Source: a virus
Taxonomy: Duplodnaviria > Caudoviricetes
DNA: 64,000 nt
Reading direction: 5' to 3' (one strand)
Virus record (IMG/VR): IMGVR_UViG_3300002092_001784
Coordinates: 192,001 to 256,000 of that record
A program made the position numbers and the translations under genes. The notes under the pieces are model-generated. The model was not told where the DNA came from. It did no database searches and saw nothing but the letters and a program-made list of their open reading frames with translations. Shown here one piece after another: positions 2,105 through 48,904 of the stretch (within the stretch, counting starts at the first letter, position 1; each line of letters opens with the position of its first letter).

Positions 2105-2137
2105 TATTCCATTCGTTTCCAAAAATAAACAATTCAA

Positions 2138-2146
2138 ATATTTATA
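2138..2146 (+). promoter_or_regulatory. Putative phage late promoter motif ATATTTATA
   Basis: One of 17 near-start copies; 11 nt before ATG 2158. Confidence 0.55.
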
Positions 2147-2157
2147 GTTATAACAAA

Positions 2158-5148: not shown

Positions 5149-5149
5149 T

Positions 5150-6214: not shown

Positions 6215-6216
6215 AT

Positions 6217-7314
6217 ATGGTAAAGGCAGGACTACAAAATGAAGAAGTAATAAGTGAGTTATTAGTTAGCGGTTCGTTGGTTATTAAACCAAAGAGTCCA
6301 ACTGGTGTTAATTATTTCGAAGCGGTTGATACTACCGATGGTATTCTTGCGGCTAAATTAACCAAACCGCATTACAATAAGCCGGAGGTTATTAAATCAA
6401 TAGATACGATTATAAAAGAATTATTACCTGTACCTGAAGTCATATTACCACCAACTGTTCCATTGGAAACGTATCAAACGGCATCATTGACTATTGATAG
6501 TCTGACAGCAACAATAGTGGGATTAAATGCAAAAATTGATGGGTTAAATTCTCAAATAGTATCACTACAATCAACAACACAAAGCTTATCTGCTACGGCT
6601 GATTCTGAAAAATTAAATGTAGCATCATTTCAGAATCAATCCGCCCAGGCAAACCAAAAGATACAAAGCTCTATTTCGGATTTACAAAATGCATTACAAA
6701 AAGCAACATTAGAAGCGGCACAGAGAGTATCATTAACGGCTATAAACGAATCTCTTAAAATACAAATAGATTCATTAACAAAAGAAATTGATACCCTAAA
6801 TCAACAATTATCTGCTCAAGCTCAGGCTGTTAGTGCTGGTGGTACTCCGACGGGTCAACTTGCTACTATATTATTTGATGGTGGTGGTGATCCAAGTAAA
6901 ACGGTATTTCCATCTATGATTTACCACGATTTTAATGGAGGGAGTGCCACCGTTGGTACTTTTGCCGCACCGAACAATACATATAAATCGGCATTTAGAA
7001 GTAATTTTACAGTTATAGCAAACGCTGTAAAAGATATAATTGTTAATATCACATTTTCCGGTAACATAAATCAAACTCCATTTGATTTTGGTACAACACT
7101 ACCGGTAACAATCAAAGCAGGGGCACAGTTAAAATTTCCATTAAATAAACCAACCACATACTTAAATGGTTTGACAGGAAAAACAGGAGGTGGATTGTTT
7201 AGTACGGCTACACCAAGTAATTATGATTTTACTATGACGGTTACTATTACCGATGTGGCAACCGGATTAATCAATGAATCCAAAGATTTTACATTTCATA
7301 TATATAAATATTAA
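6217..7314 (+). CDS. Virion structural protein with central coiled coil
   Basis: Long heptad-like region (approx. aa 85-205) followed by a beta-rich C-terminal domain. Confidence 0.55.
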   Translation: MVKAGLQNEEVISELLVSGSLVIKPKSPTGVNYFEAVDTTDGILAAKLTKPHYNKPEVIKSIDTIIKELLPVPEVILPPTVPLETYQTASLTIDSLTATIVGLNAKIDGLNSQIVSLQSTTQSLSATADSEKLNVASFQNQSAQANQKIQSSISDLQNALQKATLEAAQRVSLTAINESLKIQIDSLTKEIDTLNQQLSAQAQAVSAGGTPTGQLATILFDGGGDPSKTVFPSMIYHDFNGGSATVGTFAAPNNTYKSAFRSNFTVIANAVKDIIVNITFSGNINQTPFDFGTTLPVTIKAGAQLKFPLNKPTTYLNGLTGKTGGGLFSTATPSNYDFTMTVTITDVATGLINESKDFTFHIYKY

Positions 7315-7316
7315 TT

Positions 7317-8660
7317 ATGGCAATACAGTTTTTCAAAGATATAGTTGATAGTAAAGGGTATCGAATAAGTTCAAAGGATAGATCAATCTTTGAAACTGCC
7401 GATTTACAATCATTCTTTGGGTTGAGTGATATGGATGCCATTGAGTTTGTATTATATGATGCAAACGATAATCAATTACCACAAGGTGATTATGGGTTGG
7501 TACGATATGTAACACTCAATACACAAAATATTTCAGATTACTTTTTAATAGCCGATGGTACTATATTTCAAGCTAATAAATTCCCAAGCGAATATTTTAT
7601 TGATGCTGAACGTTTAATAAATGAAGCCGGTTATGATAATGGTATTTTTAAGACTCAAATTACACTTATTAATAAGAGATTGGGTACTGAACAACCAAAT
7701 CGTAAAGTGTGGATTTCCGAAATATCACCATCAAGAACAGAGGTTAGAATATTACCACTAAAAAACGAAGAAAACAATCAAACTGATTTATACGAACGGT
7801 TTGGTATATTTCAAAGAGATGGCGAGTTCAGAGATGATACGTTAATTTACATATTGCATTTTATAGAAAAAATAAATCCTATGATAATAGGTACAACTAT
7901 AAAAGCAAGATATACAGAACAATGGTATAATAAATTATGTACAGAATATAAAATATCGAGTTTTGATCAGTTGGTTACGATTATCTATAATAAATTTATG
8001 GAGGCTGCACTTTATGAAATTACTAATAGAATTTCGGATATACGCAATTTGAATTATGGAAATCCTAAAACAACAAAACCATCTTTACAGTTAACTAAAG
8101 AGCAACTAAAGGCAATATATTTGGACATATTGATAAAATGTATTGATTATTATTTGGCTTATGCTGATTCTCAAGCATTTGCAACATATACATTATCTTT
8201 GGATTCAAGTATTGATGAAACACGACGTTTAATGCACAGAACAACAACATATAGTACATTTGAATCAAGTTCAAAACCACCGGATGTCGTAATTGAACAA
8301 AAACAAAGAGTATGCGATACTGATGATGATGCTGTTAAGAAATTTGCAAAAGATTGTGATGATGAATTTGGTCGTGATATTGATGTGGTTGTTGTTGATA
8401 AAGATACAAAAGTACCAATTTCTAAACATATTTCTACTAATACTAATATTAAATACTTCAAACCATCATTGCGTGGTGAACCTAGTGTAGAGGCACAGAG
8501 TACTGTAACAAAAATAGAAATACCAATGGTAAAAGGGGCAACTACTGGTGAATTTAGTTTATCAAATAATACATTAAATAGTATACTATCTGATAATTAT
8601 AATAGTGGCAGTATTGCGCAAGTTTTGAATAAAATAAAAGCAACTAATAACATAGTCTAA
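7317..8660 (+). CDS. Hypothetical baseplate-region structural protein
   Basis: 447-aa ORF tightly packed in the operon; EISPSRTEVR motif; no function recognised. Confidence 0.55.
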   Translation: MAIQFFKDIVDSKGYRISSKDRSIFETADLQSFFGLSDMDAIEFVLYDANDNQLPQGDYGLVRYVTLNTQNISDYFLIADGTIFQANKFPSEYFIDAERLINEAGYDNGIFKTQITLINKRLGTEQPNRKVWISEISPSRTEVRILPLKNEENNQTDLYERFGIFQRDGEFRDDTLIYILHFIEKINPMIIGTTIKARYTEQWYNKLCTEYKISSFDQLVTIIYNKFMEAALYEITNRISDIRNLNYGNPKTTKPSLQLTKEQLKAIYLDILIKCIDYYLAYADSQAFATYTLSLDSSIDETRRLMHRTTTYSTFESSSKPPDVVIEQKQRVCDTDDDAVKKFAKDCDDEFGRDIDVVVVDKDTKVPISKHISTNTNIKYFKPSLRGEPSVEAQSTVTKIEIPMVKGATTGEFSLSNNTLNSILSDNYNSGSIAQVLNKIKATNNIV

Positions 8661-13676: not shown

Positions 13677-14390
13677 ATGAAATATATTTTTACATATAAG
13701 ACTATTAACTTGGTAAATAATAAAGTTTATATAGGGGTTCATTCAACTACAAATTTGAATGATGGATATTTAGGGAGTGGATATAAATTACAAGATGCTA
13801 TAAAAAAATATGGTAAACAATATTTTGAAATGAATCCTATACAATTTTTTAATTCAATTGAAGAAGCTTACCAACACGAAGCTGAATTGGTTAATGAAAA
13901 CTGGGTGCAATCAAACGGTAATTACAATACTGCTTTGGGTGGATTTGGCGGATTTTATCATATAGATACGAAAGGTGAAAATAATCCAAATTATGGAAAA
14001 CGATGGAATGATGAATGGAAAACAGCACAAAGAGAACGAATGAGAGAATACTACAAAAACAACCCTGCTCCAAGAAAAGGAGCAACCCATTCGGATGAAT
14101 CCAAAGAAAAAATGAGTAAATCAAAAACAGAATTTTATAAAGAGCACCCAAGTCCAATGAAAGGTACGATTATGTCAGTTGAAACAAAAAGAAAAATAAG
14201 TCAATCAAGAAAAGGATGTGGTGTTAAACCAGTCATACAATATACTAAAGAAAATGAATTTATAAAAAGATGGGATAGTATTATCAGTGCTGCAACTTTT
14301 CTAAAAATACATTCGGCATCAATTAGTATATGTGTAAACGGAAAGAGTAAAACATCTGGCGGGTATATTTGGAAATATGCTGACAGTTAA
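13677..14390 (+). mobile_element. Free-standing GIY-YIG homing endonuclease with NUMOD3/NUMOD1-type DNA-binding repeats
   Basis: YIFTYKTIN...VYIGVH...YLGSG; KGATHSDESKEKMS repeats; C-terminal KPVIQY...SAA...GGYIWKY. Confidence 0.85.
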
Positions 14391-16382: not shown

Positions 16383-17246
16383 ATGGAAAAAATTAAATGC
16401 CAATTGTGCCAAAACGAATTTAATCCCAAACAAATGGGTATGCATGTTACTCGTACTCATAAAATCACATACGATGAATATGCTACTATGTATTGGGAAA
16501 CTTTACCAAATTATTCACCATGCAAAGTGTGTGGAACTATTTGTACAGGAACCTATTGTTCAATGGACTGCCAAAAAACCGGAGTGAGTTCTAAACTAAA
16601 AGGTATAAAACAACCACCAAGAACGAAAGAACATTGTGAAAAAATAAGTAAGGCGGCAAAGGAACGGCTTAAAGATAAAACTAAACATCCTTGGTTGGGT
16701 AGAAACCATTCCGATGAAACAATTAAAAAAATATCCAAATCGTGTAAAGAAAAATATAAAGATGCAACTCATCAACCAAGATTAGGAAAACGGTTTACCG
16801 ATGAATCCAAACAAAAGATAAGCAAATCTCAATCCAAATTTTACGAAACACACGATTCTCCATTCAAGGGTAAAACACATACCCCGGAATCTATTCGTAA
16901 AATATTTGAAAATAAGCCAATGAACAAATTGGAAAAGCGGGTAGCCGATTGGTTCGATGCACGTGGCATTGGATACACATTTCAGTTTTTTATAAATTCT
17001 GATGGTATTTGTAAATCATATGATTTCAAATTAAAAGGTTCTAAAACTATTGTCGAAATTAACGGAGATTATTGGCACGGTGGTTCTGGTATTGAGAAGC
17101 ATGTGTTTAATGTAGATGTTAATATTGAAAATGATAAATTGAAAAAGAAAATGGCAGAAGATTTGGGCTATCACGTTATTACGATTTGGGAACACGATAT
17201 AAAGAATGATATAACAATATTAGAAAGTACATTAAATTTAACTTAA
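16383..17246 (+). mobile_element. Putative homing endonuclease: Zn-finger, NUMOD3 repeats and Vsr/DUF559-like nuclease domain
   Basis: CQLC...HVTRTH; GRNHSDETIKKIS, GKTHTPES repeats; YDFKL...VEINGDYWHG...GYHVITIWEHDI. Confidence 0.75.
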
Positions 17247-20139: not shown

Positions 20140-20142
20140 TTG

Positions 20143-23100
20143 ATGGGACTAAAGAAGATTTTTCATATAGCAGATATACACATACGAAATGTAAATAGAC
20201 ACGCTGAATACAGACAAGTTTTTGAAAAGATATTTGACGAAATCCGTAAAAGAGGAACTGATGATTCAATCATATATTTGGGAGGTGATATAGTTCATGC
20301 TAAGTTGGATTTATCACCGGAAATAATCCGTGAAGTAAGTTGGTTATTTACAGAGTGTTCTAACTTATGTACAACTATTTTAATAGCAGGAAACCATGAT
20401 TGTAATATGAATAATATGGACAGGTTGGATGCACTTACTCCGATAGTAGATGCTCTAAATCTATCAAACTTTCATTATCTGCGTGATACTCAAGTTTACT
20501 CTATTGGTGGTGTTGATTTTGCAGTATTCAGTATTTTCGATAAAAGAATCAATTGGCCAAAACCGGCAGAAATGTTTGGTAATAAGAAGATTGCTTTATT
20601 TCACGGACCTATTGATGCATCCACAACTGATGTGGGGTATGTTGTAAGTAGTAGACATTTTAAGCCAGAGATATTTGATGGGTTTGATGCTGCGTTGCTA
20701 GGTGATATACATAAAAGACAGATGATTATTTCTGAAACTGATTGTAAGATTGTATATCCGGGTTCCCCTATTCAGCAAAATTTTGGTGAGAGTCTAAATG
20801 GGCATGGGTTTTTAGTTTGGGATTTGGATACATTTACCTATGAGGGAGTTGATATTCAAAATGACTATGGGTATTATACGTTGGATATTGATAATGGCGT
20901 TGTTCCTGATGTGGTGGATATACCAAAACACCCAAGGTTAAGAGTTAGATTATCTAACACTTCTGCATCAGATACAAAACGTATAGTTACTGAAATTAAA
21001 ATGAAGTATGGTGTGAATGATTTTACGATTGTTCGTACTGATTCATTTTCAAAGATGCGTTCTGGAAATCGTACTTCTAAGTTGGAATTTGATGATATAA
21101 CTAATATTACCTACCAAAATGCTCTTATCACAGATTATGTTCAGAGAATGTTACCGAACGCATCTGATTCTGATATTGCCGGATTGGAAACTATAAATAC
21201 GGACATCAATGGTAGAATTTCTATGGATGATTTTCATCGAAATATAAGTTGGAAACCGATTCGATTTGAATTTGAAAATATGTTTTCCTATGGTACTGGT
21301 AATGTTGTTAATTTTGATAAGATAAGTGGGTTGATGGGATTATTTGCACCAAATGCGCAAGGTAAATCTTCAATATTGGATGCTGTATCATTTTGTATAT
21401 TCGACAAATGTAGTAGAACATTCAGAGCATCATCTATTCTTAATAACCGTGCAACTTCTTTTTGGTGTGAATTGCAAGCAGAAATAAATGGAATTGAATA
21501 CCATATCCGTAGGGAAGCAAAAACTGTTAATAAAGGTAAGAATGTAAAGGTAGATGTTCAGTTTTGGAAAATGGAAGGTGGACAATCAGTATCATTAAAT
21601 GGAACAGAACGTAGGGATACCGATTCCATAATCGAACAGTATTTTGGTAGATATGAAGATTTTCTATTAACAGCATTATCCGTTCAAGGAAATAATGCAC
21701 TTTTCATTGATAAATCACAAACAGAACGAAAGGATTTGTTGGCTCAGTTTATGGGTCTTAATATTTTTGATAAATTATATGAAACTGCAAGTGAAGATGT
21801 GAAAGAAGTAAGCACTCTTATTAAGAATTTCAAAAGAACTGATTTTACAACAGAACTCGCTGAAAAACAAATTGAATTAAAAAAGAAAAAACAGGAGTTT
21901 GGAGAACTTGACTTAAAAATTAAAGAAAAGGAACTAAGTATTGGGGAACTAAATTCAGAAATAGTTGAACTTTCTAAAAATATTATACCGATTGATGATA
22001 ATTTGGATATTGATGAATTAACTAAGAAAAAGAAAGGTATTCAATCAGAACTTACAACTTTAACTGAAGCCAAATACACAAAAACTGAAAAATTAACCGA
22101 AACCAAACAGCAGATATTTGAAACAAGTGAAATTATAGAAAGTAAAAGTAAATTGAATGGTATTGATATAACTACTGCAAAACAACAATGGGACAGTTAT
22201 ACCGATAAAATAGTAGAAATTACACATAAGATAGAATTATTAGCACAATCTATAAGTTCTAATGTTGAAAAGTTATCTCATTTGGAAAAGCATGAATATG
22301 ATCCAAATTGTAAATTCTGTATGAATAATGTATTTGTAACAGATGCGATTGCTACTAAAGCTATTGTGGCTGAACAATATATTGAATTGGATGGGTTACG
22401 TTCGGCATCAAAATCATTCACAGATATTGCATATCCTTTTACCAATGCAAAGTCACAATGGAATGAGTGGTTAACATTAACTGAAACTAAAAAACGATTA
22501 TCTACTGTTAGGGACAAGATACAATCCGAGTTAAAGAATTGTGACACTAAAGAAGAATTATTATTGCATCAATTAAAATCGGTAAATGATGATATTGATA
22601 GATACAATGATAATGAAGAATCAATTATAACCAATAAAGGTTTGAATAAACAAATTTCTTTGATTAATGAATCACAGCGTGAGTTGGGAATTGAATTAAA
22701 TGATTTGAAAAAACAGTTATTGAGAATAACGGCTGACACCGGTTCTATTAAAACTTTTATTGATACTACAAAGGCTAAAATGAAAGAGGTAAAAGAATTG
22801 GAGATTAAAAATAGATTGTATACCTTTTATTTAGAGTCCGTCAAACGTGACGGTATTCCTTATGAATTGATTACCAAAGCATTGCCGGTTATAGAAGATG
22901 AAATAAACAACATCTTATCTCAGGTAGTTGATTTTCATATTGTGATGGATACGGATGGTAAAAACATAAACGCCAAAATAGTTTACGAAGATAATGAATG
23001 GGCTTTGGAAATGTGTAGTGGTATGGAAAAATTCATTAGTGGATTGGCAATCAGAGTTGCATTAATCAATATTTGTAATTTACCAAGACCTAACTTTTTG

Positions 23101-23286
23101 GTTATAGATGAAGGTTTTGGAACTTTGGATAGTGAAAACCTTTCATCGTTGTTTATGATGATGCAATATTTGAAAACACAATTTGATTTTATTTGGGTAA
23201 TATCGCATTTGGATCAGATGCGTGATATTGTTGATGGTTTAATAGAAATTAAAAAGATTAACGGATACAGTAATATTAAATTTTAA
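20143..23286 (+). CDS. Fused Mre11/SbcD nuclease and Rad50/SbcC ATPase (gp47-gp46 fusion)
   Basis: HIADIH, AGNHD, LFHG, LGDIH phosphoesterase motifs; APNAQGKSS Walker A, CKFC zinc hook, CSGMEK signature, LVIDEG Walker B, ISH H-loop. Start ATG 20143 or TTG 20140. Confidence 0.88.
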   Translation: MGLKKIFHIADIHIRNVNRHAEYRQVFEKIFDEIRKRGTDDSIIYLGGDIVHAKLDLSPEIIREVSWLFTECSNLCTTILIAGNHDCNMNNMDRLDALTPIVDALNLSNFHYLRDTQVYSIGGVDFAVFSIFDKRINWPKPAEMFGNKKIALFHGPIDASTTDVGYVVSSRHFKPEIFDGFDAALLGDIHKRQMIISETDCKIVYPGSPIQQNFGESLNGHGFLVWDLDTFTYEGVDIQNDYGYYTLDIDNGVVPDVVDIPKHPRLRVRLSNTSASDTKRIVTEIKMKYGVNDFTIVRTDSFSKMRSGNRTSKLEFDDITNITYQNALITDYVQRMLPNASDSDIAGLETINTDINGRISMDDFHRNISWKPIRFEFENMFSYGTGNVVNFDKISGLMGLFAPNAQGKSSILDAVSFCIFDKCSRTFRASSILNNRATSFWCELQAEINGIEYHIRREAKTVNKGKNVKVDVQFWKMEGGQSVSLNGTERRDTDSIIEQYFGRYEDFLLTALSVQGNNALFIDKSQTERKDLLAQFMGLNIFDKLYETASEDVKEVSTLIKNFKRTDFTTELAEKQIELKKKKQEFGELDLKIKEKELSIGELNSEIVELSKNIIPIDDNLDIDELTKKKKGIQSELTTLTEAKYTKTEKLTETKQQIFETSEIIESKSKLNGIDITTAKQQWDSYTDKIVEITHKIELLAQSISSNVEKLSHLEKHEYDPNCKFCMNNVFVTDAIATKAIVAEQYIELDGLRSASKSFTDIAYPFTNAKSQWNEWLTLTETKKRLSTVRDKIQSELKNCDTKEELLLHQLKSVNDDIDRYNDNEESIITNKGLNKQISLINESQRELGIELNDLKKQLLRITADTGSIKTFIDTTKAKMKEVKELEIKNRLYTFYLESVKRDGIPYELITKALPVIEDEINNILSQVVDFHIVMDTDGKNINAKIVYEDNEWALEMCSGMEKFISGLAIRVALINICNLPRPNFLVIDEGFGTLDSENLSSLFMMMQYLKTQFDFIWVISHLDQMRDIVDGLIEIKKINGYSNIKF

Positions 23287-38858: not shown

Positions 38859-41800
38859 ATGAATGAGCTTGTAAAACATTTAGTTGAAACTATAATTTCG
38901 GAAGAAACTGAAAAAAATTATATTGTTGTATATTCCGGTAGATTTCAACCATTTCACAAAGGACATTATGCTACTTACTTAAATCTTACCAAAAAATTTG
39001 GAAAAGATAAAGTTTACATTGCTACGTCTAATGTAACTGATAATAAAAAATCACCTTTTAATTTTGCAGAAAAAAAGGTTATAATGACTAGAATGTTCGA
39101 TATTCCATCGGACAAAATAGTACAGATTAGAAACCCATATGCACCTACTGAAATATTAAATAAATATGATCCAGAAAAGACAGGTGTTATTTTTGTTGTT
39201 GGTGAAAAGGATACTGCTAGACTTGGTGGTAAATATTTCACACCATATAAGGGTACGGTTGATGCTGGATATAAAGATAAAGGATATGTATATGCTTCAC
39301 CTGCACAACCAAACGCAATAAGTGGTACTGATGTTCGTAATTGGTTAGGTAACGGTACGGATGAAGAAAAGAGAGCCAATTTTCTGAAAGCATATCCAAA
39401 ATTCGATGAGAAGATTTTCAAATTAATAACACTCAAGTTGAAAAAATTGGGTGAATCTATACGTGAGGAAATCAAAATCAATGTAAATGTTGGCGATACG
39501 GTGTTAATGGGAAAATTCAAAAACCATCCGGTTAAAGTTAAATCAATCGGTAAGGATGAACATGGTATGCCAACCATTAATGGAAAGAAAGCCGCTACAT
39601 TCAGAATAGGTAATCATATAAATATATTTGATACTGCGGTCAATGAAGATGGTGCGGGCGCCGGAGGTGCTGCCGGGTTTGGAGGACAAGGTGGTGGAGC
39701 TGGTGTTGGGTTATCTTTACCCGGTGGATATATAAACGGAGCACCAAATCCAAAGGATGTTAAAAAGACAAGAAAGAAATTAAAACAAAAAGATGATGAT
39801 ATTTACACACCAGTAAATGAAGCATCTCTTGCTGGATATTATGCTGATAGCGGAGAACCAAATCCTAATTATGTAGCTGATGGACAAGAACGTATTTTAG
39901 ATAAAGGAAAGCCAGAACCTTGGTTTACACAAGGAGGGTATACTCAATTACATATTCCAAAAGGTGATTGGATGAGAGGTAAGGCATTAAAAGATCGTGA
40001 AGATGATATGCAACTTCGTAAGGTATACTACAAAGTTCAAAATATTAAACAAAGTGCATTAAATCCGGCAGATGATCCACATACTACCGAAGATTGGCAA
40101 GTTGTTAATAGGGATACTCCGTTGGAAAAACCAAAAAGATTTTGGGAATTACCAAAAAATCAAAAGCCTGAAATAATAGATGATAAAGAAATTACTGAAA
40201 TATTCAATCAGACCCTAAAAGAATTGGGATTGTTGGAATTTAGTGGTGGGCACTCGTTTCCACATGATGGTAACGCAACAACAGGTCGTCAATGGAACAA
40301 ATCATGGGAAGAATATGATAATCCGGATGCATATATTAAACACCTAATGGGATGGTCTACTAAAGATGCCATACCAAGCGATAGGTTTAAGGATATTAAA
40401 CATCAAGAAATTCCATTAAATCAATCCGGACAGGAAACAGGAATATACGATCATACATTGGATTACAATATACTTGCTCCAAATGAATTTTTAGAAAAAT
40501 CTGAAATTCAAAAGGGTGTGGTGAACGATGCTTCAGATGAAATGCATCGTCCTTTACATAATGGAATGGAATGGCCATCTATGGATGATATTAAAGCCAA
40601 ACGAAAAAAAATAAAATCAAAACTTCGAAGTCCTAAAAATTCGTATTTGAGTGTGGATGCTCCAATCGTAGGTGAAACCGATTCCGAAGCATTAGATGAA
40701 ATGGCAATGCCAGATATGAAATCGGTAGAAAAATACGCAGATCAACAGTTGAGTCCGGAAGATGTTGAATTAGGAAAGCAAACTGACCATTTTTTCCAAC
40801 GATTAAATGATCCACGAAACGGAAAACCAATTTCGACAGCAGAAATGATAGGTTTCTTTAAGAGGTTGGGTAACAACAAAGAGAAATTTTTAGATTTTGT
40901 AAAGAAATATAGTGAATTTGTTGTAAAGGATAATAGAACAAATATCAATATCGCCTTTATGAAGCAGGCTAATAAACTTATTGCCAAAACGGTGATGAGA
41001 AAGCCTGATTTTAAGACAAGCAATCCAATATTTGTAGATGAAGCTGAACAATTGGATGAATTGGCATGGTCTACTAGTGCATTTAATTTTGTGCAAGATG
41101 TTGATGTACCATTTACACCAAAAGTTGCAAAAGCACTCTATGGTGATATGATAGTTACTACATTTCATGTTAGCGATTCTGATAATATTGATAATATTAA
41201 AAAGTTAATCGGTAAGAAAAAATCAGTGTCAACATTTACATATATGGCGCGAACCGCTTTGCAGAATATGGATGGTATACAAACCGACGGTGGTATAATA
41301 TATCAATTAGTTGGTAAGGTTTTAATAGATTCTGCGAATGATATTATGAGTAGACCTGATGAACAGGGTAGACGGTGGGTAATGGGACGAGATTTGAATC
41401 CAGTTACCTATAAATTGTATCAGAAATTTTATAAGTATATGGGTTCTAAGAAAGAACTTCAAAAATACGATGAAAAATATGAATCAACTTATGATGCAGA
41501 CACTGACTCTAGTTCATTAACCAATAAAGAAAAATCTGAATGGATAGCAGCATACATTCGATTGGCTGAAGAGTGGATTATTCAGCACGCCGATGAATTT
41601 AGGGATACTATGCGTAAGATGCCAATGGATGAATATTGGAATGAAGTAGTGGTATACGATATACACATTAAAGATGTATTGTGGACAAACTCTGGGCAGT
41701 TTGGGACGGCTGACGAAGATGAATTGAATGAAATAAGTCATAAATTAAATACAATCGCAACCGGAACTGTTTATTACACCGATGAACCTTCAGATGCATT

Positions 41801-42326
41801 GAAATTTGTAAAATCAAGAGGTGGACAATATGCCAAAGCAAATATCGGATTACCATATAAAGGTGTGCCGGTTGGCAGTACAAATATTAATAGTATATTA
41901 AGTGCCGACGCATTTAACATGAAAGAATCGGTTCAACCAATTAGTATCAACGAAGCAACCGAAGCATTGAAGATGCACATACCATCGGATATTGAGCAAA
42001 TATATAAAATGTTTCAAAAAAATGGTAAGAAATTGTATATTGTTGGTGGTGCTGTTAGGGATGCTATTTTGGGAAAGACACCAAAAGATTTTGATTTAGC
42101 AACCGATGCTACTCCTGATGAAGTTTTAGCTATGGCTAAAAAGGAAGGTATGCATTCGACAGAAGTTGGAAAAGCATTTGGTGTGGTGATTGTTAATGGT
42201 AATGAAATAGCAACTTTCAGGAAAGATGTGAAATTAAAAGATAATGCAGATGATTTTATAAAATATTTACAATATATTAATATACCGAATACTCGTATAT
42301 CTACTTTCAAAAAAGAATTGAATTAG
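38859..42326 (+). CDS. Multidomain polyprotein, part A: NadM/cytidylyltransferase-like, SH3-like, BECR-like, ART-like module 1, N-terminal half of CCA-adding enzyme
   Basis: SGRFQPFHKGH and ISGTDVR; HFFQRLNDPRN...KTVMRK; LAW...TFHVSD...KSVSTF...WNEVVV; YIVGGAVRDAILGKTPKDFDLATDA...EIATFRKD. Confidence 0.75.
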   Translation: MNELVKHLVETIISEETEKNYIVVYSGRFQPFHKGHYATYLNLTKKFGKDKVYIATSNVTDNKKSPFNFAEKKVIMTRMFDIPSDKIVQIRNPYAPTEILNKYDPEKTGVIFVVGEKDTARLGGKYFTPYKGTVDAGYKDKGYVYASPAQPNAISGTDVRNWLGNGTDEEKRANFLKAYPKFDEKIFKLITLKLKKLGESIREEIKINVNVGDTVLMGKFKNHPVKVKSIGKDEHGMPTINGKKAATFRIGNHINIFDTAVNEDGAGAGGAAGFGGQGGGAGVGLSLPGGYINGAPNPKDVKKTRKKLKQKDDDIYTPVNEASLAGYYADSGEPNPNYVADGQERILDKGKPEPWFTQGGYTQLHIPKGDWMRGKALKDREDDMQLRKVYYKVQNIKQSALNPADDPHTTEDWQVVNRDTPLEKPKRFWELPKNQKPEIIDDKEITEIFNQTLKELGLLEFSGGHSFPHDGNATTGRQWNKSWEEYDNPDAYIKHLMGWSTKDAIPSDRFKDIKHQEIPLNQSGQETGIYDHTLDYNILAPNEFLEKSEIQKGVVNDASDEMHRPLHNGMEWPSMDDIKAKRKKIKSKLRSPKNSYLSVDAPIVGETDSEALDEMAMPDMKSVEKYADQQLSPEDVELGKQTDHFFQRLNDPRNGKPISTAEMIGFFKRLGNNKEKFLDFVKKYSEFVVKDNRTNINIAFMKQANKLIAKTVMRKPDFKTSNPIFVDEAEQLDELAWSTSAFNFVQDVDVPFTPKVAKALYGDMIVTTFHVSDSDNIDNIKKLIGKKKSVSTFTYMARTALQNMDGIQTDGGIIYQLVGKVLIDSANDIMSRPDEQGRRWVMGRDLNPVTYKLYQKFYKYMGSKKELQKYDEKYESTYDADTDSSSLTNKEKSEWIAAYIRLAEEWIIQHADEFRDTMRKMPMDEYWNEVVVYDIHIKDVLWTNSGQFGTADEDELNEISHKLNTIATGTVYYTDEPSDALKFVKSRGGQYAKANIGLPYKGVPVGSTNINSILSADAFNMKESVQPISINEATEALKMHIPSDIEQIYKMFQKNGKKLYIVGGAVRDAILGKTPKDFDLATDATPDEVLAMAKKEGMHSTEVGKAFGVVIVNGNEIATFRKDVKLKDNADDFIKYLQYINIPNTRISTFKKELN

Positions 42327-42352
42327 CCACATTTCGTTTATTTTATTAATTA

Positions 42353-42361
42353 ATATTTATA
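42353..42361 (+). promoter_or_regulatory. Putative late promoter of inserted endonuclease (and downstream polyprotein part B)
   Basis: ATATTTATA-TGT-ATG, identical context to 13665. Confidence 0.6.
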
Positions 42362-42364
42362 TGT

Positions 42365-43117
42365 ATGATTATATACAAAGTAACAAATAAAATAAATAAA
42401 AAGATATATATTGGACAAACTATACGTTCAATGACGGAACGTAAATATGGACATATAAAATCTGTTAGAATGGGAAGTACTTCGTTGTTTCATAATTCTA
42501 TTAGAAAATATGGAATTGATAATTTTACATGGGAAGTAATAGACACGGCACATTGTATAGAAAAGTTAAATGAATTAGAAATTAGTTATATTGCAAAATT
42601 TAATTGTTTTATTGATTTTCAAAATAGTAATGGGTATAATATGAATACTGGTGGTGGTAATTATATAACATCACATTTAACTAAACAAAAACTTAGTATT
42701 ATAAATACCGGTAAAATTTTATCAACCGAAACTAAAGAGAAAATCAGTAAAGGTAACCTTGGAAAATCAGTAACCGAATCATTTCGAAAAACTATGAGTG
42801 AGTTAAATAAAGGTAGAGTTGCTAGTTTGGAAACTAGAGAAAAAATAAGTAAATCTTTGCAAGGCAAGCCGGGTAGAAATACCGGTAATACGCATACTCA
42901 AGAAACTAAAGAAAAAATATCGAATACAAAAAAAGGAACGGTTTCTTGGAATGCATCGCCAGTTATACAACTAACGATGGACGGCGAATTTGTTAGAGAA
43001 TGGCGAAGCGCAGCATTTGCCGCATCCCAATTAAAGTTAAGTCAAGGCAATATAACATCATGTATACATGGTAAACGAAACAGTACTGGTAACTACAAAT
43101 GGATTAAAAAAATATGA
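42365..43117 (+). mobile_element. Free-standing GIY-YIG homing endonuclease inserted within the CCA-adding domain
   Basis: IIYKVTN...IYIGQT...NGYNMNTGG; NUMOD3 repeats; C-terminal PVIQL...SAA...GNYKW; stop overlaps the next start (ATGA). Confidence 0.85.
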
Positions 43118-46100
43118 AAAATTGGAAAGAAATTGCTAAGCAGTATTTTGCGGATGAATATATTGATTTTCAAAAATTAATAAGTGGTACTGGTGCAAAT
43201 ATAAACGTTAAACGGGGGGCTCAGATTGTAGATTATACGGATATTGAGGGTGATGTCAAACGACGTGACTTGACAATTAATGCGTTATTTTATGATATTG
43301 ATAGAGGTGAAATCGTAGATTTAGTTGGTGGTATAGCAGATTTACATAAAAAGAAAATACGAACCGTTGGTAACGCAACTGAAAGATTTGATGAAGACCC
43401 TCTTCGGAAATTAAGAGCGTTGAGATTTTACAGTCAACTGGGTGGTAATATGGATGTTGAAACTCTTAAAGCATTAAAAGATAACCCATCATTGGAAGGT
43501 GTAAGTGCGGAAAGGATTCGTGACGAATTTATAAAAACACTTAATAAAGCAAAATCCGAAAAGAGATACCTTCAAATGCTGCAAGCTCTTAAATTCTTAA
43601 ATCAAATTCTACCCGATTTGGTGGTGGCTAAACCGTATGTAGATGAAAATGATTACATTGTATTACTTGCGTATTTGCTTAGAGAAAATGATACTCAAAC
43701 TCTAATACGTCAACTAAATAAGTTGAAGTATACAAACGATGAATGTAAAGATATAACTTTTTTGGTATCGCTACAATCATTCACCGCAGATAAAATTGCC
43801 AATTACAAAAAAAACCAATCTGTTACTACATTAAGTGATAATCAAATATTGGAATTTGGGAAATTGATCGGAAAGAACTTCAATAAATTTGTGAAATTTC
43901 AATTAGCTATAAAAGGTTCAGATGTACCTGCTGGATTAAAAGGTAAAGATATTGGAAATTGGATGGGTGATGCTGAATCAAAACGATTTTTGAATGAAGC
44001 AGTAGTGATTAAAAATTTCAAAGATATATTCAGTAAATTACCAACTGAAGTTCAGAAAAAAATATATTCACTAAAAGATGCACCGCAAAACCCAAAACAT
44101 CATCCGGAAGGTAATACATTAAAGCACACTATTATGGTGGTGAATCGTGCATTGAAGTATTTTCCGAATGATATTGATTTAATAATAGCAGCAATATTTC
44201 ACGATATAGGTAAAGCTGATACGATGAGTATTCATCCAAAGACCGGTGGTATAACTCATTATGGGCATGAAGATGTATCTACCGAATGGGTTAACCGATA
44301 TAGTAATTGGATTGAATCTATGGGTGGAAACGCTGAAGATGTACGATATATTGTACAGAACCATATGAAAATGCATAATTTTGATATAATGCGATTGGCA
44401 AAACAACGTGCATTACAATCGCATCCTGCATTTGATAAATTATATGGATTTTCCCAAAAAATGGATAAGGGTGGATTCGGTGAGGGAATACATGAGGGAG
44501 TAAGTGAGGGTATAAATAATCCAAAAATTACATTTCTAATCGGACCTCCTGCTTCTGGAAAAAGTACTTGGGTTAGTAATAACTCAAAAGGTGCTATTAT
44601 CATTTCACGTGACGATATTGTAGACCGTTTAAGAAAACCATTGGGATTATCGTATGGTGAGGCATTTAGTAATGATGAGTTACAAAATAAAGTTAATTCT
44701 GAGCTACAATCCCATATTACACAGACACTTACTTCTGGCAAGGATATAGTTGTGGATATGACTAATATGACCAAAAAAGGTAGACATAAAATATTATCAA
44801 GAGTACCAAAAAACTATACAAAAAATGCGGTAGTGTTTAGTGTTGGTCGTGATGAATTACTTAAACGATTAAAATCAAGGGAAGAAGAAACTGGGAAAAC
44901 TGTACCTGTTTCGGTTGTAGACCAAATGATTAGGAATTTTCAGAAGCCAGATACCGGAGAATTTGATAACATTACAAATGAGGGAATAACTGAGGGTGTA
45001 ATCAATGAATTGGCTTGGCAAGGCAAAGCAATGGATCGGATACAGGAATTGGGATTCCCATTGACACCTAAAATTGGTAAGGAAGTATATGGTGATACAG
45101 TTGTTACTACATTTCATGTAAGCGATGTAAACCATATTGATGATATTAAAAAAATAATCGGTAAAAAGAAATCCATATCAACATTCAAATATATGAATGA
45201 TATGATGCTGAAAAATATGGATGGCATTAGAACCGTCGGTGGTATTATTTATGAATTGCGAGGAAATATAGTAGCAGATTCAACCAAAGATATAGGTAGT
45301 GCCCCAGATGAACAAGGACGTAGATGGGTGATGCTATATTCATCGGCACCGGGTATATATAAATTTACATATGGGTTCAAACAGAAATTAAAATCCAATC
45401 CAATAACAGGTCCTATTTTTGAGTATTTTTGGAAAAATGGTATAATGCCGGAAATGGATAATACTAATAAAGCAAAATTCATAGCAGCATATATTTCTAC
45501 GGCAGAAAAATACATAATTGAAAATCAAGATGATTGGGTACAACTATTGCTTTCACCGCAAACTAATAATGCTTGGAATGAAGTATTGGTAAATAATATA
45601 CAAGTTAATGATATAATTTGGACAAATAAATTTTATCAATATAGTAAAGAACAATTAGCTGAATATTCTAAAAAATTAGAAGTAATTGCAAAGGGTAAAG
45701 TATATTTTACAATGGATTCAAAAGATACCATTGAATTTGTTAAATCACGCGGTGGCTTTACTGGTAATATTAATGCCACACCAAAAGAATATATGGGAGC
45801 GGCAGTTGGAAGTGAAGATGCAATGAAATTTATGAAAGAAGAAGTGCTGAATGAATTGGCTTGGGAGGCTGGTGTTAATAAATTTATAACACAAATGAAT
45901 TTTCCGTTTACACCAAAAGTTGGGAAAGCATTATATGGTGACGCGGTTGCTACTACATTTCATATAACAGATGCTGACAACTTTTCTAAAATAAAATCTC
46001 TTATCGGCAAAAAGAAATCCATTTCTTCGTTTACCTTTATGGGTGATGATATGTTAGATGATATAAGGGGAATACAGACCGTAGGTGGTATTTTATTTCA

Positions 46101-47997
46101 ATTAGAAGCAAAAATAGTACTAGATTCCGCGGTAGATGCGATGAGTCAACCGGATACAGAAGGTAGACGTTGGTCAATCGAACCAACAACATTGAGAAAA
46201 CAATTCAAACAGGAAATATATGATGATGCCAAGTTTTATAAACGATTTAATTTATATTGGGCTGGCGGAAAGGCAATGACTCAAAGTGAAAAGGGTAAGT
46301 TTGTAGCGGATTATATCACACGAGCTGAAAAGTTTTTAATTAAAAATAAAAATAAAGTTATAAAAGAGTTAAGATCGCATGGGTTGGTGGGTGATTGGAA
46401 TGAAGTTATTGTATATGATATAAAGGTAAAGGATGTATTATGGACAAATACTTCCAATAATTATTATACCGATAGAATACGACATAGTGATGCTGAAATA
46501 AAGCGTATTGCTAGTGAACTAAAACAAATAGCAACTGGTACTGTATATTTTACTGAAAATCCTAAAGATGCTATTGAATTTGTGAAAAGTAGAGGTGGTT
46601 TTGTTGGTGGCAGTGGCTGGGACTCTACTGGTGAATATAAAGGAGCTGCTGTTGGCAGTACAAATCCAAAAATTATTATGAAAGAAGGAAATATGAAAAC
46701 TATAATGGAAGGCTTGAGTAAAAAAGATTTACTAATCGAAGAACTGATGGTTCAAAGACAATACGGATTACTTGCTAATAACCAAAAGGTATTACTACAA
46801 TGTGGTGGGGCCTACGGACATATGCATCACCCATTTGATACCGAAATCAATCTTACATTTGGGGATTTGAAAGATATAGTAAAGAAAGCGTTAACTGGTG
46901 AATTGGAACTTACTCGTGAAAAAACAGATGGTCAGGCTCTCGCAATTAGTTGGGTAGACGGTAGATTGGTTGCTGCTCGTAATAAATCACATCTTAAAAA
47001 CAAAGGAAAGGATGCAATGACTTTACAAGCCGTTGCTGATAAATTTGGTGGGCGTGGTGGATTATCCGATGCATACAATTTTGCAATGCAAGACCTTTCA
47101 AATGCAATTAGTGCATTATCAGAAGCACAAAGACAACTTATATTCAAAGATGGGACATGTTTTATGAATTTGGAAGTAATATATCCAACTTCGGTAAATG
47201 TAATACCATACAATCAGGCACTATTGGTATTTCATGGAACATTTGAATACGACGAGAGTGGAAACATAATTGGTGAAAATCAACCCGCAGCTCGTGTATT
47301 GGCAGGTATGATTAAGCAGGTAAACCAGAATGTTCAAACGAAATACAAAATACAAGGACCACCGGTTATTCAATTACCAAAATCGGCAGATTTGACAGAC
47401 CTTCAATCAAAATATTTGGCAATGGTTTCAAAATTACAATCAGAATTTGGATTATCAGATTCAGATGGTGTTGCTGATTATCATCAGGCATGGTGGAGGT
47501 ATTACATCGATGTTAACGCACATTCATTGCCGGAAGAACAAAAGAAAGCACTAACAAAAAGATGGGCATTTTACGATAAATCATTTAGGTTGAAGGATAT
47601 TCAAGATGATACAGTTAGAGCTTGGGCTGAAAAAATAGATAAGCAAGATCAAGCAAAAATTGCGAAAGATAATCTAATGAGGTTTGAACAGATATTTTTA
47701 GGAGTGGGTTCAGATGTACTTTCATTTATGAAATCAGTTCTTACCGCAAATCCTGATGAAGCAAAACGACAGATGGTTAGTAAATTAGATCAAACGATTA
47801 AAGATGTAAAAAACAGTGGTGATCCGAAAAAGATAGAAAAACTAAAATTAGAATTACAGAGATTACAATCGGTAGGTGGGTTTGATAAAATTGTACCAAT
47901 CGAAGGTATTGTTTTTGTATATAAAGGTAACGTAATGAAGCTAACAGGCGCTTTTGCTGCATGCAATCAAATTAACGGTATCTTTTTTTCAAAATAG
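43114..47997 (+). CDS. Multidomain polyprotein, part B: C-terminal half of CCA-adding enzyme, HD domain, PNK-like kinase, ART-like modules 2 and 3, ATP-dependent ligase-like domain
   Basis: IEGDVKRRDLTINA...RFDEDPLRKLRALRF; HHPEG..LKH...FHDIGKA; GPPASGKST...SRDD...DMTN; two LAW modules; EKTDG...ARNK...NLEVI...EGIVF...MKLTG. Confidence 0.78.
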   Translation: MKNWKEIAKQYFADEYIDFQKLISGTGANINVKRGAQIVDYTDIEGDVKRRDLTINALFYDIDRGEIVDLVGGIADLHKKKIRTVGNATERFDEDPLRKLRALRFYSQLGGNMDVETLKALKDNPSLEGVSAERIRDEFIKTLNKAKSEKRYLQMLQALKFLNQILPDLVVAKPYVDENDYIVLLAYLLRENDTQTLIRQLNKLKYTNDECKDITFLVSLQSFTADKIANYKKNQSVTTLSDNQILEFGKLIGKNFNKFVKFQLAIKGSDVPAGLKGKDIGNWMGDAESKRFLNEAVVIKNFKDIFSKLPTEVQKKIYSLKDAPQNPKHHPEGNTLKHTIMVVNRALKYFPNDIDLIIAAIFHDIGKADTMSIHPKTGGITHYGHEDVSTEWVNRYSNWIESMGGNAEDVRYIVQNHMKMHNFDIMRLAKQRALQSHPAFDKLYGFSQKMDKGGFGEGIHEGVSEGINNPKITFLIGPPASGKSTWVSNNSKGAIIISRDDIVDRLRKPLGLSYGEAFSNDELQNKVNSELQSHITQTLTSGKDIVVDMTNMTKKGRHKILSRVPKNYTKNAVVFSVGRDELLKRLKSREEETGKTVPVSVVDQMIRNFQKPDTGEFDNITNEGITEGVINELAWQGKAMDRIQELGFPLTPKIGKEVYGDTVVTTFHVSDVNHIDDIKKIIGKKKSISTFKYMNDMMLKNMDGIRTVGGIIYELRGNIVADSTKDIGSAPDEQGRRWVMLYSSAPGIYKFTYGFKQKLKSNPITGPIFEYFWKNGIMPEMDNTNKAKFIAAYISTAEKYIIENQDDWVQLLLSPQTNNAWNEVLVNNIQVNDIIWTNKFYQYSKEQLAEYSKKLEVIAKGKVYFTMDSKDTIEFVKSRGGFTGNINATPKEYMGAAVGSEDAMKFMKEEVLNELAWEAGVNKFITQMNFPFTPKVGKALYGDAVATTFHITDADNFSKIKSLIGKKKSISSFTFMGDDMLDDIRGIQTVGGILFQLEAKIVLDSAVDAMSQPDTEGRRWSIEPTTLRKQFKQEIYDDAKFYKRFNLYWAGGKAMTQSEKGKFVADYITRAEKFLIKNKNKVIKELRSHGLVGDWNEVIVYDIKVKDVLWTNTSNNYYTDRIRHSDAEIKRIASELKQIATGTVYFTENPKDAIEFVKSRGGFVGGSGWDSTGEYKGAAVGSTNPKIIMKEGNMKTIMEGLSKKDLLIEELMVQRQYGLLANNQKVLLQCGGAYGHMHHPFDTEINLTFGDLKDIVKKALTGELELTREKTDGQALAISWVDGRLVAARNKSHLKNKGKDAMTLQAVADKFGGRGGLSDAYNFAMQDLSNAISALSEAQRQLIFKDGTCFMNLEVIYPTSVNVIPYNQALLVFHGTFEYDESGNIIGENQPAARVLAGMIKQVNQNVQTKYKIQGPPVIQLPKSADLTDLQSKYLAMVSKLQSEFGLSDSDGVADYHQAWWRYYIDVNAHSLPEEQKKALTKRWAFYDKSFRLKDIQDDTVRAWAEKIDKQDQAKIAKDNLMRFEQIFLGVGSDVLSFMKSVLTANPDEAKRQMVSKLDQTIKDVKNSGDPKKIEKLKLELQRLQSVGGFDKIVPIEGIVFVYKGNVMKLTGAFAACNQINGIFFSK

Positions 47998-48061: not shown

Positions 48062-48904
48062 ATGATTATATATAAAGCTACAAACAAAGTAAGTGGTAAG
48101 TGCTATATTGGGCAAACTGTTAAGACTTTAGAAAATAGAATATATCATCACATTTCTAATTCTAAATCTGCAATACATAAAAGTATTTTTCACAATGCTT
48201 TGAAATCTTATGGTTCTGATAATTTTGAATGGGAAGTTATAGCAACGGCCGATACAAAAGAACAACTTAATGAATTGGAAATATACTATATAACAAAATA
48301 TGATAGTATAAATACCGGTTATAATATGGTTGAAGGTGGGACTGGTGGTTACAACCAATTTGCGGTAGATGCAAACAAATTAAAAAGAGCAGGTAAAACT
48401 TGGAATGAAATATATTCAGATACGGGGTTGGCTGTTATGAAAAATGCATTATCTACTTTTACTAAAGCTGGGGTTGAATATATTAAAAATTTACCAAAAG
48501 AACAAAGAATTATTAATGCAAAACGAGCTAACAAAGCCAGAACTGATATGGGATATAAACATAGTGATGCAACAAAAGATAAAATGAGTAAAGCTCAAAA
48601 AGGTATAACCAATACAGACCGATATGGTGAAGATGCTGCCAGCGAACTAAAAAAGAAAATATCCGAAGCAACTAAAGAAGCTATGAAAAAAGTGGACAGG
48701 GATTTAATCGGAAGAAAATCAGTTGAAGCTCGTACACCATTTTGGAATAAAAAACACGAAAATGATAGAAATGTGATATTAGAGATGACAAAACTGGGTA
48801 GTAAAATTAAAGATATAATGTTTGCTATAAATGTATCACCACCGACTTATTATAAACGAGTTAATGAATTGAAAAATATGGGATACTCCAATTTGTTTGA
48901 ATAA
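48062..48904 (+). mobile_element. Free-standing GIY-YIG homing endonuclease with C-terminal HTH-like segment
   Basis: IIYKATN...CYIGQT...GYNMVEGG; GYKHSDATKDKMS; IKDIMFAINVSPPTYYKRV; followed by a terminator. Confidence 0.82.

Follow-up and report, generated by a model that had tools for sequence, protein, structure and literature searches.

The only class II CCA-adding gene of a phage with a genome of 266 kb is distributed over two open reading frames with a homing endonuclease gene between them. The reading preferred here, with a probability of about 0.72, is that of a two-polypeptide CCA-adding enzyme which has been split by a mobile endonuclease cassette and is reassembled in trans. The arrangement itself, the unbroken state of the gene in relatives and the conservation of the peptides added at the break can be read directly from the genomes, while translation, assembly and activity of both halves would follow if the preferred reading is correct.

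Layout of the interrupted gene

Coordinates refer to the window, the whole stretch of 64,000 nucleotides of phage DNA that was analysed, with the following features at the interrupted locus.

38859..42326, + strand: ORF1, 1155 aa; NMNAT-like domain, then unknown modules, with the N-half of the CCA head domain at the C-terminus
41955..42227, + strand: N-half of the CCA-adding head domain; motif A GGAVRD, DFDLATD; last residues EIATFRKD
42204..42221, + strand: first copy of an EIATFR-coding 18-mer, in frame at the end of exon 1
42228..42326, + strand: 32-aa C-terminal tail (42228-42323) and TAG (42324-42326); pattern of the split-CCA family …DxF(I/K)x(Y/F)L…F…K-stop
42320..42337, + strand: second copy of the 18-mer, ELATFR in the +2 frame; includes the TAG of the tail, 116 nt past the first copy
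42353..42361, + strand: ATATTTATA box, 3 nt 5' of the endonuclease ATG; over-represented promoter-like motif
42365..43117, + strand: gene of a free-standing homing endonuclease of 250 aa, with GIY-YIG nuclease, NUMOD3 and an I-HmuI-type NUMOD-like end for DNA binding
43114..47997, + strand: ORF3, 1627 aa; CCA C-half, HD, P-loop kinase (AAA_33), repeat modules, ligase-like end
43114..43197, + strand: 28-aa N-terminal leader of ORF3; family pattern M-x-N/K-W-x-x-I-A-K…E-F/Y-x-x-F
43198..43233, + strand: remodelled flexible loop; NINVKRGAQIVD where relatives have DIGKGRRPSSVD, one Arg retained and G-R-R-P lost
43234..43998, + strand: CCA-adding C-half; motif B DVKRRDLTINA, motif D EDPLRKLRALRF, neck and body

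The class II motifs are divided between the two frames, with GGAVRD, DFDLATD and FRKD (motif A carboxylates and RxD) in ORF1, and RRD of motif B and ED..R..R of motif D in ORF3. By Pfam, ORF1 matches CTP_transf_like at residues 24-161 and positions 1-76 of the PolyA_pol profile (PF01743) at residues 1059-1130, and ORF3 carries profile positions 79-126 (1-77 and 78-126 in another run) together with PolyA_pol_RNAbd, the RNA-binding neck. As the profile is covered near-continuously across both frames, no part of the domain is missing, and these halves are the sole PolyA_pol matches in the 266-kb genome. The last codon of FRKD, GAT, ends at 42227 and the Y of YTDIEGD stands at 43234, in agreement with the preliminary description, which had also correctly placed the 32-aa tail with its TAG, the GIY-YIG frame and the ATGA-coupled restart. 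At this ATGA (43114-43117), the ATG of ORF3 shares bases with the TGA of the endonuclease gene, a common type of junction in this genome (22 junctions), in which Shine-Dalgarno motifs are generally missing. The leader, earlier given as approximately 38 aa, is new as described, but its non-homologous part measures 28 aa, or 40 aa if counted to the Y.

In 57 of 59 relatives from IMG/VR, the uninterrupted homologues that had been proposed as a comparison, the gene runs unbroken across the FRKD|IGKGRRP site (…FRKDIGKGRRPSSVDY…), and homology to these unbroken relatives restarts at about 43198 (NINVKRGAQIVDY vs DIGKGRRPSSVDY).

The endonuclease frame has its own start and stop, and ORF1, the endonuclease and ORF3 lie in three different reading frames. 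The predicted protein matches phrog_314 of PHROGs (E 1e-42) as well as NUMOD3 (53.6 bits) and I-HmuI_NUMOD-like (32.9 bits), with GIY-YIG at 21.8 bits in hmmscan, where the cut-off is 22.6, and at 25.9 bits in a six-frame search. It aligns with I-TevI over the full length at 25% identity; the best matches in IMG/VR and metagenomes have at most 47% identity, and a PDB sequence search returned none. Cassettes sitting in diverged CCA genes share 62-64% identity in the C-terminal DNA-binding domain, and the protein would be an active endonuclease that homes. Among the loci of the best-matching relatives just mentioned, none was found inside another CCA gene, a CCA gene being nearby only in three (L077/L078/L139), unbroken and on the opposite strand.

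Upstream of this gene, the ATATTTATA box belongs to a set of 16 in the window where 6.5 +/- 2.4 are expected, a count reached in 0 of 100 shuffles; its copies are mostly found 3-40 nt upstream of gene starts, ORF1 included, and related cassettes have conserved it upstream of their endonuclease gene. The late motif previously seen at this place can be retained as this promoter-like element of the plus strand, but not as a T4-type late promoter, because TATAAATA (42354-42361) lacks enrichment and lies on the minus strand alone.

Conservation of tail and leader and proposed assembly of the two chains

The tail and the leader have no counterpart in unbroken relatives and are conserved among split forms. 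The preliminary description had treated both as incidental new sequence; judged by sequence comparison, they are conserved parts of the cassette and not accidental read-through. The second copy of the 18-mer was present in 9 of 9 split loci examined, at a spacing of 113, 116 or 119 nt. The reading frame of the tail stays open (P ~0.03 by shuffling), and pooled dN/dS of tail and leader amounts to 0.09-0.29 in the three closest pairs, resembling the catalytic core, with dS being saturated in most pairs, a sample of only approximately 55 codons and one pair (L058 and L060) being identical and hence yielding no ratio. By this measure, tail and leader are under purifying selection. Regarding their source, BLAST gave no match elsewhere in this genome or in relatives, PHROGs gave none for either peptide, an origin of the tail by duplication of the loop/motif B region and later divergence was rejected (hhalign probability 0.2%) and a mirror-image duplicate of exon 2 was not found near the leader.

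The split form is widespread. In a profile search of 1.84 billion cluster representatives at 50% identity, approximately 25 of the best 150 end in this tail; every match among these best 150 that reaches the tail positions stops there, and a contiguous tail-leader form was not seen among them. Equally, a search limited to proteins of 67-216 aa retrieved approximately 100 N-half-only proteins with the alignment running into the tail. At L198, L199, L201, L202/L203 and L207/L208, the order is N-half, GIY-YIG/NUMOD3 gene, small ORF and C-half, with a conserved leader. At L206, the endonuclease gene is gone and tail, 62 nt and leader remain; the split persists there without the endonuclease. A free tree places the split form of the window apart from the other four split forms, and a single clade of split forms is not rejected by the AU test (p 0.137). 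A report on split CCA-adding enzymes in phages was not found in the literature.

In the preferred reading, a mobile homing-endonuclease cassette would have entered the region of the CCA gene that codes for the flexible loop, bringing with it the tail segment with its stop, the out-of-frame EIATFR copy, the promoter-like box, the GIY-YIG/NUMOD3 gene and a start codon with the leader segment. With neither RNA nor protein splicing taking place, the product of ORF1 would end with the head-domain strands and the 32-aa tail, and ORF3 would restart through the ATGA overlap with the 28-aa leader, the loop, motif B and the remaining enzyme. The two polypeptides would subsequently rejoin non-covalently and make the sheet of the head domain complete, while the tail and leader brought in by the cassette would pack against each other as an assembly clamp. 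It is thus the insert-supplied peptides that probably hold the halves together.

The two-chain enzyme in trans, as already put forward in the preliminary description, gains support from the conservation of tail and leader, the persistence of the split at L206, purifying selection and a predicted structure of the complex. The complex-structure prediction suggested there gave a model of the two halves which scores 0.73, vs 0.00 for the best of three controls, and places the tail against the leader; 58 of 80 solved complexes attain the score mark, as do 2 of 110 mismatched pairs (rough counts, own alignments being used), and models of split halves tend to pass because of likeness to solved structures. 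Runs agree in at least 87% of contacts with a partner pLDDT of at least 83. While the core interface in the model may be reproduced from the solved structures of CCA enzymes with a single chain, the low-error contacts between tail and leader, for example of residue 19 of chain 2 with residue 104 of chain 1, are not derivable from them.

The flexible loop and competing readings

The flexible loop switches a class II enzyme from C- to A-addition, and with the cut exactly at this loop the split gene represents a natural experiment on it. In the window, the break falls on the N-terminal border of the loop, and KRGAQ takes the place of the GRRP of the family. GKGRRP is nearly invariant in unbroken relatives and GRRP is retained in other split forms; the segment is replaced only in this copy, which carries 7 extra residues, so that the earlier remark on a missing G-R-x-P motif is true here. 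The altered loop in this copy could reflect relaxed constraint.

Because the loop is severed at its border and the GRRP segment is replaced, with NINVKRGAQIVD standing in for DIGKGRRPSSVD, there is perhaps one chance in a few that the two-piece enzyme is active yet restricted to CC-addition, as the preliminary description had considered possible, or weak in A-addition, and that the host enzyme adds the terminal A. Point mutations in the loop, replacement of Gly10 and loop swaps leave class II enzymes able to perform CC-addition only, and the loop is missing from enzymes that are CC-adding by nature (PMC2910056). Against this, the loop is not deleted in the window, its length is similar or greater and an Arg is kept at the aligned position (R34). 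Active enzymes equally differ strongly in loop sequence (PMC2910056), and other members of the split family keep GRRP, so the split by itself does not imply loss of the loop. The two-chain enzyme may perform A-addition, to an extent that the altered loop could limit.

A dead CCA function appears distinctly less probable. The insertion would in this case have inactivated the enzyme and left the N-half as a useless appendage of ORF1, with the host CCA enzyme serving the phage tRNAs, and leader and ATG would survive only for translation of the downstream HD, kinase and ligase domains, for which the start codon of the C-half would be kept anyway. The near-invariant GRRP motif is lost in this copy only, A-addition is abolished in tested enzymes when the loop is mutated or heterologous (PMC2910056) and the host presumably has a CCA enzyme of its own. 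However, both halves keep every invariant core residue, including all catalytic ones and, in the N-half, all residues invariant among 18 relatives, despite approximately 30-40% divergence from the nearest relatives, and private changes are few (4 + 4, vs 10-23 in the outlier relatives L052 and L026). Equally against inactivation stand a tail that is open and homologous to the family tail, a split form that is widespread and outlasts the endonuclease at L206, and approximately 20 of 24 phage tRNA genes without encoded CCA. IMG/VR and metagenome searches retrieved no closely related genome that shares this allele, and the 23-mer coding for the altered loop where exon 2 begins has no exact match in IMG/VR, so selection after the insertion is not measurable in this lineage.

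It is very improbable that a contiguous product is restored by a split intein or by a cryptic group I intron that splices itself and has the endonuclease frame in a loop, even though GIY-YIG endonucleases in T4 are often intron-encoded and the U at 42229 with the Gs at 43184/43187/43193 formally permits in-frame junctions. A group I intron was rejected because Intron_gpI has no Rfam match in 41900-43500 at E<=10, whereas an equal-sized search finds the T4 td intron with the I-TevI ORF (E 2e-8), and because the flanks (19-28% GC) are less structured than shuffles; the joined non-ORF flanks, of 22% GC, have a z of +1.5 vs -3.8 for T4 td. Furthermore, no Rfam family reaches its gathering score in the whole window, P7/P3-like core motifs were not seen, across the family the stop of the tail and the starting ATG of the leader are both conserved, and in L206 the halves lie only 62 nt apart. 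An intein or split intein was rejected on the three reading frames, the lengths (32 + 28 aa, far below the size of the Hint fold, with no Hint/intein match in Pfam) and the junction residues: the tail has no N-terminal Cys/Ser, family tails beginning with V, R, Q, S, E or A, and the leader no C-terminal His-Asn followed by Cys/Ser/Thr, G-R-R-P or N-I-N standing directly after it. These in silico results support the earlier proposal of a free-standing endonuclease that is neither intron nor intein.

Implications and relation to known systems

If the preferred reading is true, the phage possesses the first natural two-subunit class II CCA-adding enzyme. For annotation, 'PolyA_pol' fragments of approximately 120-145 aa on phage contigs and their partners of approximately 295 aa would be halves of one enzyme, neither pseudogenes nor assembly errors. 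A tentative extension is that tail and leader are portable: the endonuclease would be flanked by coding segments for peptides that rejoin whatever protein is cut, the cassette would home between diverged CCA genes and the out-of-frame EIATFR copy upstream of the endonuclease promoter would be an operator or homology element. Should this hold, selfish endonucleases would have, beside introns and inteins, a third way to neutralise insertion into an essential gene.

The arrangement nrdA-a / mobE / nrdA-b of Aeromonas phage Aeh1 has reportedly been described as 'genes in pieces' by Friedrich et al. in 2007. In Aeh1, NrdA is split by mobE into two polypeptides, and experiments have demonstrated that activity depends on the insertion-derived tails as essential parts (Crona et al., 2011, PMC3045599). 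From this one example, such tails have been proposed as a possible general remedy for gene fragmentation by endonucleases (PMC3045599). The CCA-adding enzyme would be a second enzyme class with insertion-derived tails, and as these show conservation across dozens of diverged phage lineages and persist once the endonuclease is lost, the idea becomes testable by comparison and biochemistry. Both systems have a free-standing endonuclease gene in a functionally critical region of an enzyme, no splicing, and C- and N-terminal tails born from the insertion (PMC3045599, PMC2988022). They differ in that the Aeh1 gene is NrdA with an HNH endonuclease, whereas here a class II CCA-adding enzyme meets a GIY-YIG/NUMOD3 endonuclease, the tails span many diverged phages and outlast the endonuclease, and the halves, known from sequence and model, sit within fusion proteins of 1155 and 1627 aa.

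Other systems share single aspects. T4 td/I-TevI has the same succession of GIY-YIG nuclease, linker and C-terminal DNA-binding domain and an insertion in codons for a conserved catalytic region, but possesses an intron ribozyme, whereas here the host gene is predicted to yield two proteins. The 'fractured genes' of Dassa et al. (2009, PMC2677866), which have split inteins, likewise consist of a host gene in two ORFs, an endonuclease gene between and extra end peptides; the segments of 32 and 28 aa described here, unlike those, lack intein blocks and nucleophiles, so the halves would associate non-covalently. Separate CC- and A-adding enzymes, as in Bacillus halodurans and Aquifex (PMC2910056, PMC7014341), are two complete paralogues, one of them loop-deleted, whereas the cut at the loop described here goes through one single enzyme. 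The split gene 43 (seg) in Aeromonas phage 25 and gene 39/60 (mobA) in T4 are enzyme genes fragmented at a free-standing endonuclease that give multi-subunit enzymes, for which the parts of the source consulted describe no conserved family-wide pair of tail and leader (PMC2988022). As judged from sequence, the split CCA gene thus matches the Aeh1 nrdA/mobE type with insertion-derived tails, in a new host enzyme.

Anatomy and genome setting of the split gene

The class II CCA-adding enzyme is encoded in two halves at the outer of three consecutive plus-strand genes, and the preliminary description of a CCA gene split by an endonuclease ORF is real.

Features of the locus and further endonuclease genes of the genome (window coordinates unless marked)
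38859-42326, plus strand: ORF1, 1155 aa, its C-terminal end being the first half of the class II CCA-adding head domain
42204-42221, plus strand: 18-nt EIATFR-coding repeat, copy 1, end of exon 1
42320-42337, plus strand: 18-nt EIATFR-coding repeat, copy 2, 116 nt downstream, +2 frame
42365-43117, plus strand: middle endonuclease ORF, 250 aa, second frame
43114-47997, plus strand: ORF3, 1627 aa, third frame, start ATG overlapping the stop TGA of the middle ORF
13677-14390, 16383-17246, 48062-48904 and genome 58922-59707: further GIY-YIG and/or NUMOD3 endonuclease genes (at least four)

In ORF1 the head domain proceeds through GGAVRD and DFDLATD to EIATFRKD, breaks at its last base, 42227, and is followed by 32 more codons (the tail) and a TAG stop; past the 250-aa GIY-YIG ORF, it continues in ORF3, where 28 unrelated residues (the leader) precede the loop, motifs B (DVKRRDLTINA) and D and the neck that binds RNA, with domains of the HD, P-loop kinase and ligase-like types further on. 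The Pfam profile PF01743 is cut cleanly: ORF1 matches its positions 1-76 and ORF3 its positions 79-126, and no other PolyA_pol match occurs in the genome. Domain and profile matches identify the middle ORF as a homing endonuclease of GIY-YIG/NUMOD3/I-HmuI-NUMOD-like type, which shares 25% identity with I-TevI along the full length. Tail-coding segment, endonuclease gene and leader-coding segment together are termed the cassette, and the CCA-coding parts on either side exons 1 and 2. When this AT-rich stretch is shuffled, a tail open over 32 codons arises with P about 0.03.

The IMG/VR virus record (266,153 bp, 34% GC), of which the window covers bases 192001-256000, is judged complete, carries nearly all genes on the plus strand, has several very long ORFs and encodes a T4-type large terminase. 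A tmRNA and about 24 tRNA genes are located beyond the window at genome 95624-149353; as the 3' CCA is encoded in only about 3-4 of these tRNA genes, the phage tRNAs need CCA addition. The additional endonuclease genes are all apparently intergenic, two of them directly 3' of giant ORFs (past 13624 and past 47997). Another gene fusion, a single 1048-aa ORF at 20140-23286, joins an Mre11-like phosphoesterase to a Rad50/SMC-like ATPase, the T4 counterparts of which are gp47 and gp46. A module of about 280 aa without a Pfam match occurs in three diverged copies (…TTFH(V/I)xD…KKKS(V/I)S(T/S)F…GRRW…WNEV…), each ending in VKSRGG, which separate enzymatic domains in ORF1 and ORF3 (about 41061-46686).

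Intron, intein and expression signals

Excision at the RNA level by a group I intron is rejected, with no match at E<=10 in an Rfam search of 41900-43500, while the 1.6 kb T4 td control with the I-TevI ORF in place returned Intron_gpI at E 2e-8; the joined non-ORF flanks (22% GC) are unstructured, folding worse than shuffles (z +1.5, versus -3.8 for the T4 td flanks). An intein is rejected on the three frames of the three ORFs, the lack of any Hint/intein match at the locus, the junction residues (no Cys or Ser at the tail start, no His-Asn plus nucleophile after the leader) and length, 32+28 residues being unable to form a Hint fold. A free-standing endonuclease, as initially proposed from the sequence, is thus supported.

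ATGA overlaps are found at 22 gene pairs of the genome and start codons generally stand without Shine-Dalgarno motifs, which are essentially absent, so that the restart of ORF3 is ordinary for this phage. The late motif reported earlier does not hold, since the exact T4 late consensus at the endonuclease gene is on the wrong strand only. The plus-strand box ATATTTATA, on the other hand, with 16 copies in the window against 6.5 +/- 2.4 expected and located mostly 3-40 nt upstream of gene starts, is probably the phage's own, putative promoter box.

Examples of the 14 plus-strand sites listed for ATATTTATA
13665, 16353, 17251, 23501, 38827 (ORF1), 42353 (endonuclease), 48032, 48973, 51300 and 53588, plus strand: ATATTTATA box

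At two endonuclease genes (13677, 42365) the box lies only 3 nt before the ATG, and of 7 cassettes 6 have a near-identical box upstream of their endonuclease gene. A terminator-like site between the halves was not found on the plus strand.

Conservation and history of the split

BLAST searches of tail and leader against the phage's own genome and its relatives gave no match. A search with N-half plus tail restricted to proteins of 67-216 aa, leaving out full-length enzymes, recovered about 100 short PF01743 proteins, mostly of 142-144 aa, which cover 84-96% of the query, so that their alignments extend into the tail; the aligned tails share FRxD, a short variable stretch, (D/E)xF(K/I/L)x(Y/F)L(K/R), then F after a second variable part, and K as the last residue before the stop. 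Among 1.84 billion cluster representatives, searched by profile without length filter, no protein that aligns with the tail positions continues beyond them; such proteins make up about 25 of the 150 top matches, some with other domains fused upstream. A contiguous tail-leader insertion in one protein was not seen. Gene context was recovered for L198, L199, L201, L202/L203 and L207/L208 (L-numbers denote loci or contigs of other phages found by database searches), with the order N-half plus tail, GIY-YIG or NUMOD3/I-HmuI-like endonuclease, small variable ORF and C-half of about 295-310 aa. Their C-half leaders are clearly homologous to that of the window (M-E/K-N/K-W-E/K-x-I-A-K…E-F/Y-x-x-F, then GRRPDxVxF and motif B). 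Peculiar to the window copy are the embedding of the CCA halves in two very large fusion proteins, the lack of a small ORF between endonuclease gene and C-half and the loss of the GRRP loop motif. In locus L206, adjoined by a T4-type baseplate gene, tail and leader are separated by 62 nt and the endonuclease gene is entirely absent; the split therefore outlives the endonuclease. Pooled tail and leader codons show a dN/dS of 0.09-0.29 in the three closest pairs, like the catalytic core, with saturation in more distant pairs.

A TonB-dependent receptor, a PnuC-type NMN transporter and a NadR-like protein are encoded upstream beside the split CCA gene in L198 (1-2828) and L199 (1-3106), and NAPRTase, NUDIX and NAD synthase genes on other contigs with the split gene; NAD salvage genes thus travel with the CCA gene, as does the NMNAT-like head of ORF1.

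The EIATFR-coding direct repeat flanks the tail, and as copy 2 is in the +2 frame, the tail's TAG falls within its Ile-Ala codons. Each of the nine split loci examined (the window, L198-L202 and L205-L207) carries the repeat, at a spacing of 113, 116 or 119 nt and with copy 2 invariably in the +2 frame and spanning the stop codon of the tail; across loci copy 2 varies mostly at third positions of its own frame. Copy 2 may be what remains of the original insertion point or may represent an internal homology arm. I-TevI has an operator resembling its homing site next to the endonuclease promoter; by analogy, copy 2 may be a putative operator mimicking the homing site beside the endonuclease promoter.

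Uninterrupted homologues, the search for which had been proposed earlier, are frequent: an IMG/VR scan gave 59 loci with relatives at 50-75% identity, in 57 of which the CCA gene is unbroken and reads …EIATFRKDIGKGRRPSSVDYTDIEGDV…. The loop DIGKGRRP(S/T/D)(S/A)VDY is almost invariant among them, and the window has NINVKRGAQIVDY at the corresponding position, in agreement with the absence of G-R-x-P noted previously. This flexible loop is required for A-addition and deleted in CC-adding enzymes (PMC2910056). With GRRP lost, the window copy may or may not still add the terminal A. The window halves keep all residues invariant in 17-18 relatives; private changes at otherwise invariant columns amount to 4+4 (two in the loop), versus 23 in L026 and 10 in L052.

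Loci of other phages with a different split or a nearby endonuclease
L060 (identical to L058) 4610-8511: differently split CCA gene, break …LRFLRF|LHSI-stop / MGTTD…
L077/L078/L139 about 1579-2424, minus strand: unbroken CCA gene, endonuclease at about 4001

In the remaining two loci, L058 and L060, the same gene is split elsewhere, between head and neck, by the gene of a 296-aa Vsr/DUF559-type endonuclease. A stop and a start codon lie right at this break, which shows no sign of an intron. The giant ORF of L060 with the split gene also has its ligase KxDG motif interrupted by a Hint/intein (REKC|VYGD…). In L077, L078 and L139 a 35%-identical relative of the endonuclease is found at a distance of about 1.5 kb from a CCA-adding gene that is unbroken and lies on the other strand; this proximity may be coincidental, or a free-standing endonuclease may have settled beside its target.

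The joined-exon tree unites the other four split forms in one supported clade (99/97) and places the window among unbroken relatives (93/92), with the split forms grouping together in 0 of 200 bootstrap trees; a single clade of split forms is, however, not rejected by the AU test (p 0.137), so that the split forms may stem either from horizontal homing or from one origin with losses. The C-terminal DNA-binding part of the window endonuclease is 62-64% identical to that of the four-form split clade; the nuclease domains differ. The closest whole-length endonuclease match (42%) is in L200, the N-half of which resembles the unbroken clade.

Predicted assembly and known systems

Complex modelling, suggested in the preliminary description, was performed with separately aligned halves of 123 and 295 residues and gave a score of 0.73, with 0.00 for the best of three controls. 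Of 80 solved complexes 58 attain this mark, and of 110 mismatched pairs 2 do so; both counts are approximate, own alignments having been used. Runs share at least 87% of contacts, with a partner pLDDT of at least 83. In the predicted core interface, residues 55-69 of chain 2 face residues 26-38 of chain 1; this pairing may derive from solved structures, because any single-chain CCA enzyme structure would suggest the same. Low-error contacts are also predicted between the tail, residues 94-122 of chain 1, and the leader, residues 2-23 of chain 2; these cannot derive from single-chain structures, although the two peptides are tethered next to each other. The model thus supports binding of the two halves, being consistent with it rather than proof, and the main proposal of a predicted two-piece CCA enzyme of the Aeh1 type is supported.

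A report of a split CCA-adding enzyme was not found in the literature searched; endonuclease-split genes in T4-like phages are listed in a review (PMC2988022). In Aeh1, the tails created by mobE insertion are essential for the split NrdA, and such insertion-derived tails have been suggested as a general mechanism (Crona et al., 2011; PMC3045599). The CCA gene of the window is likewise fragmented, an Aeh1-type gene with insertion-derived tails, and its cassette is conserved and widespread.
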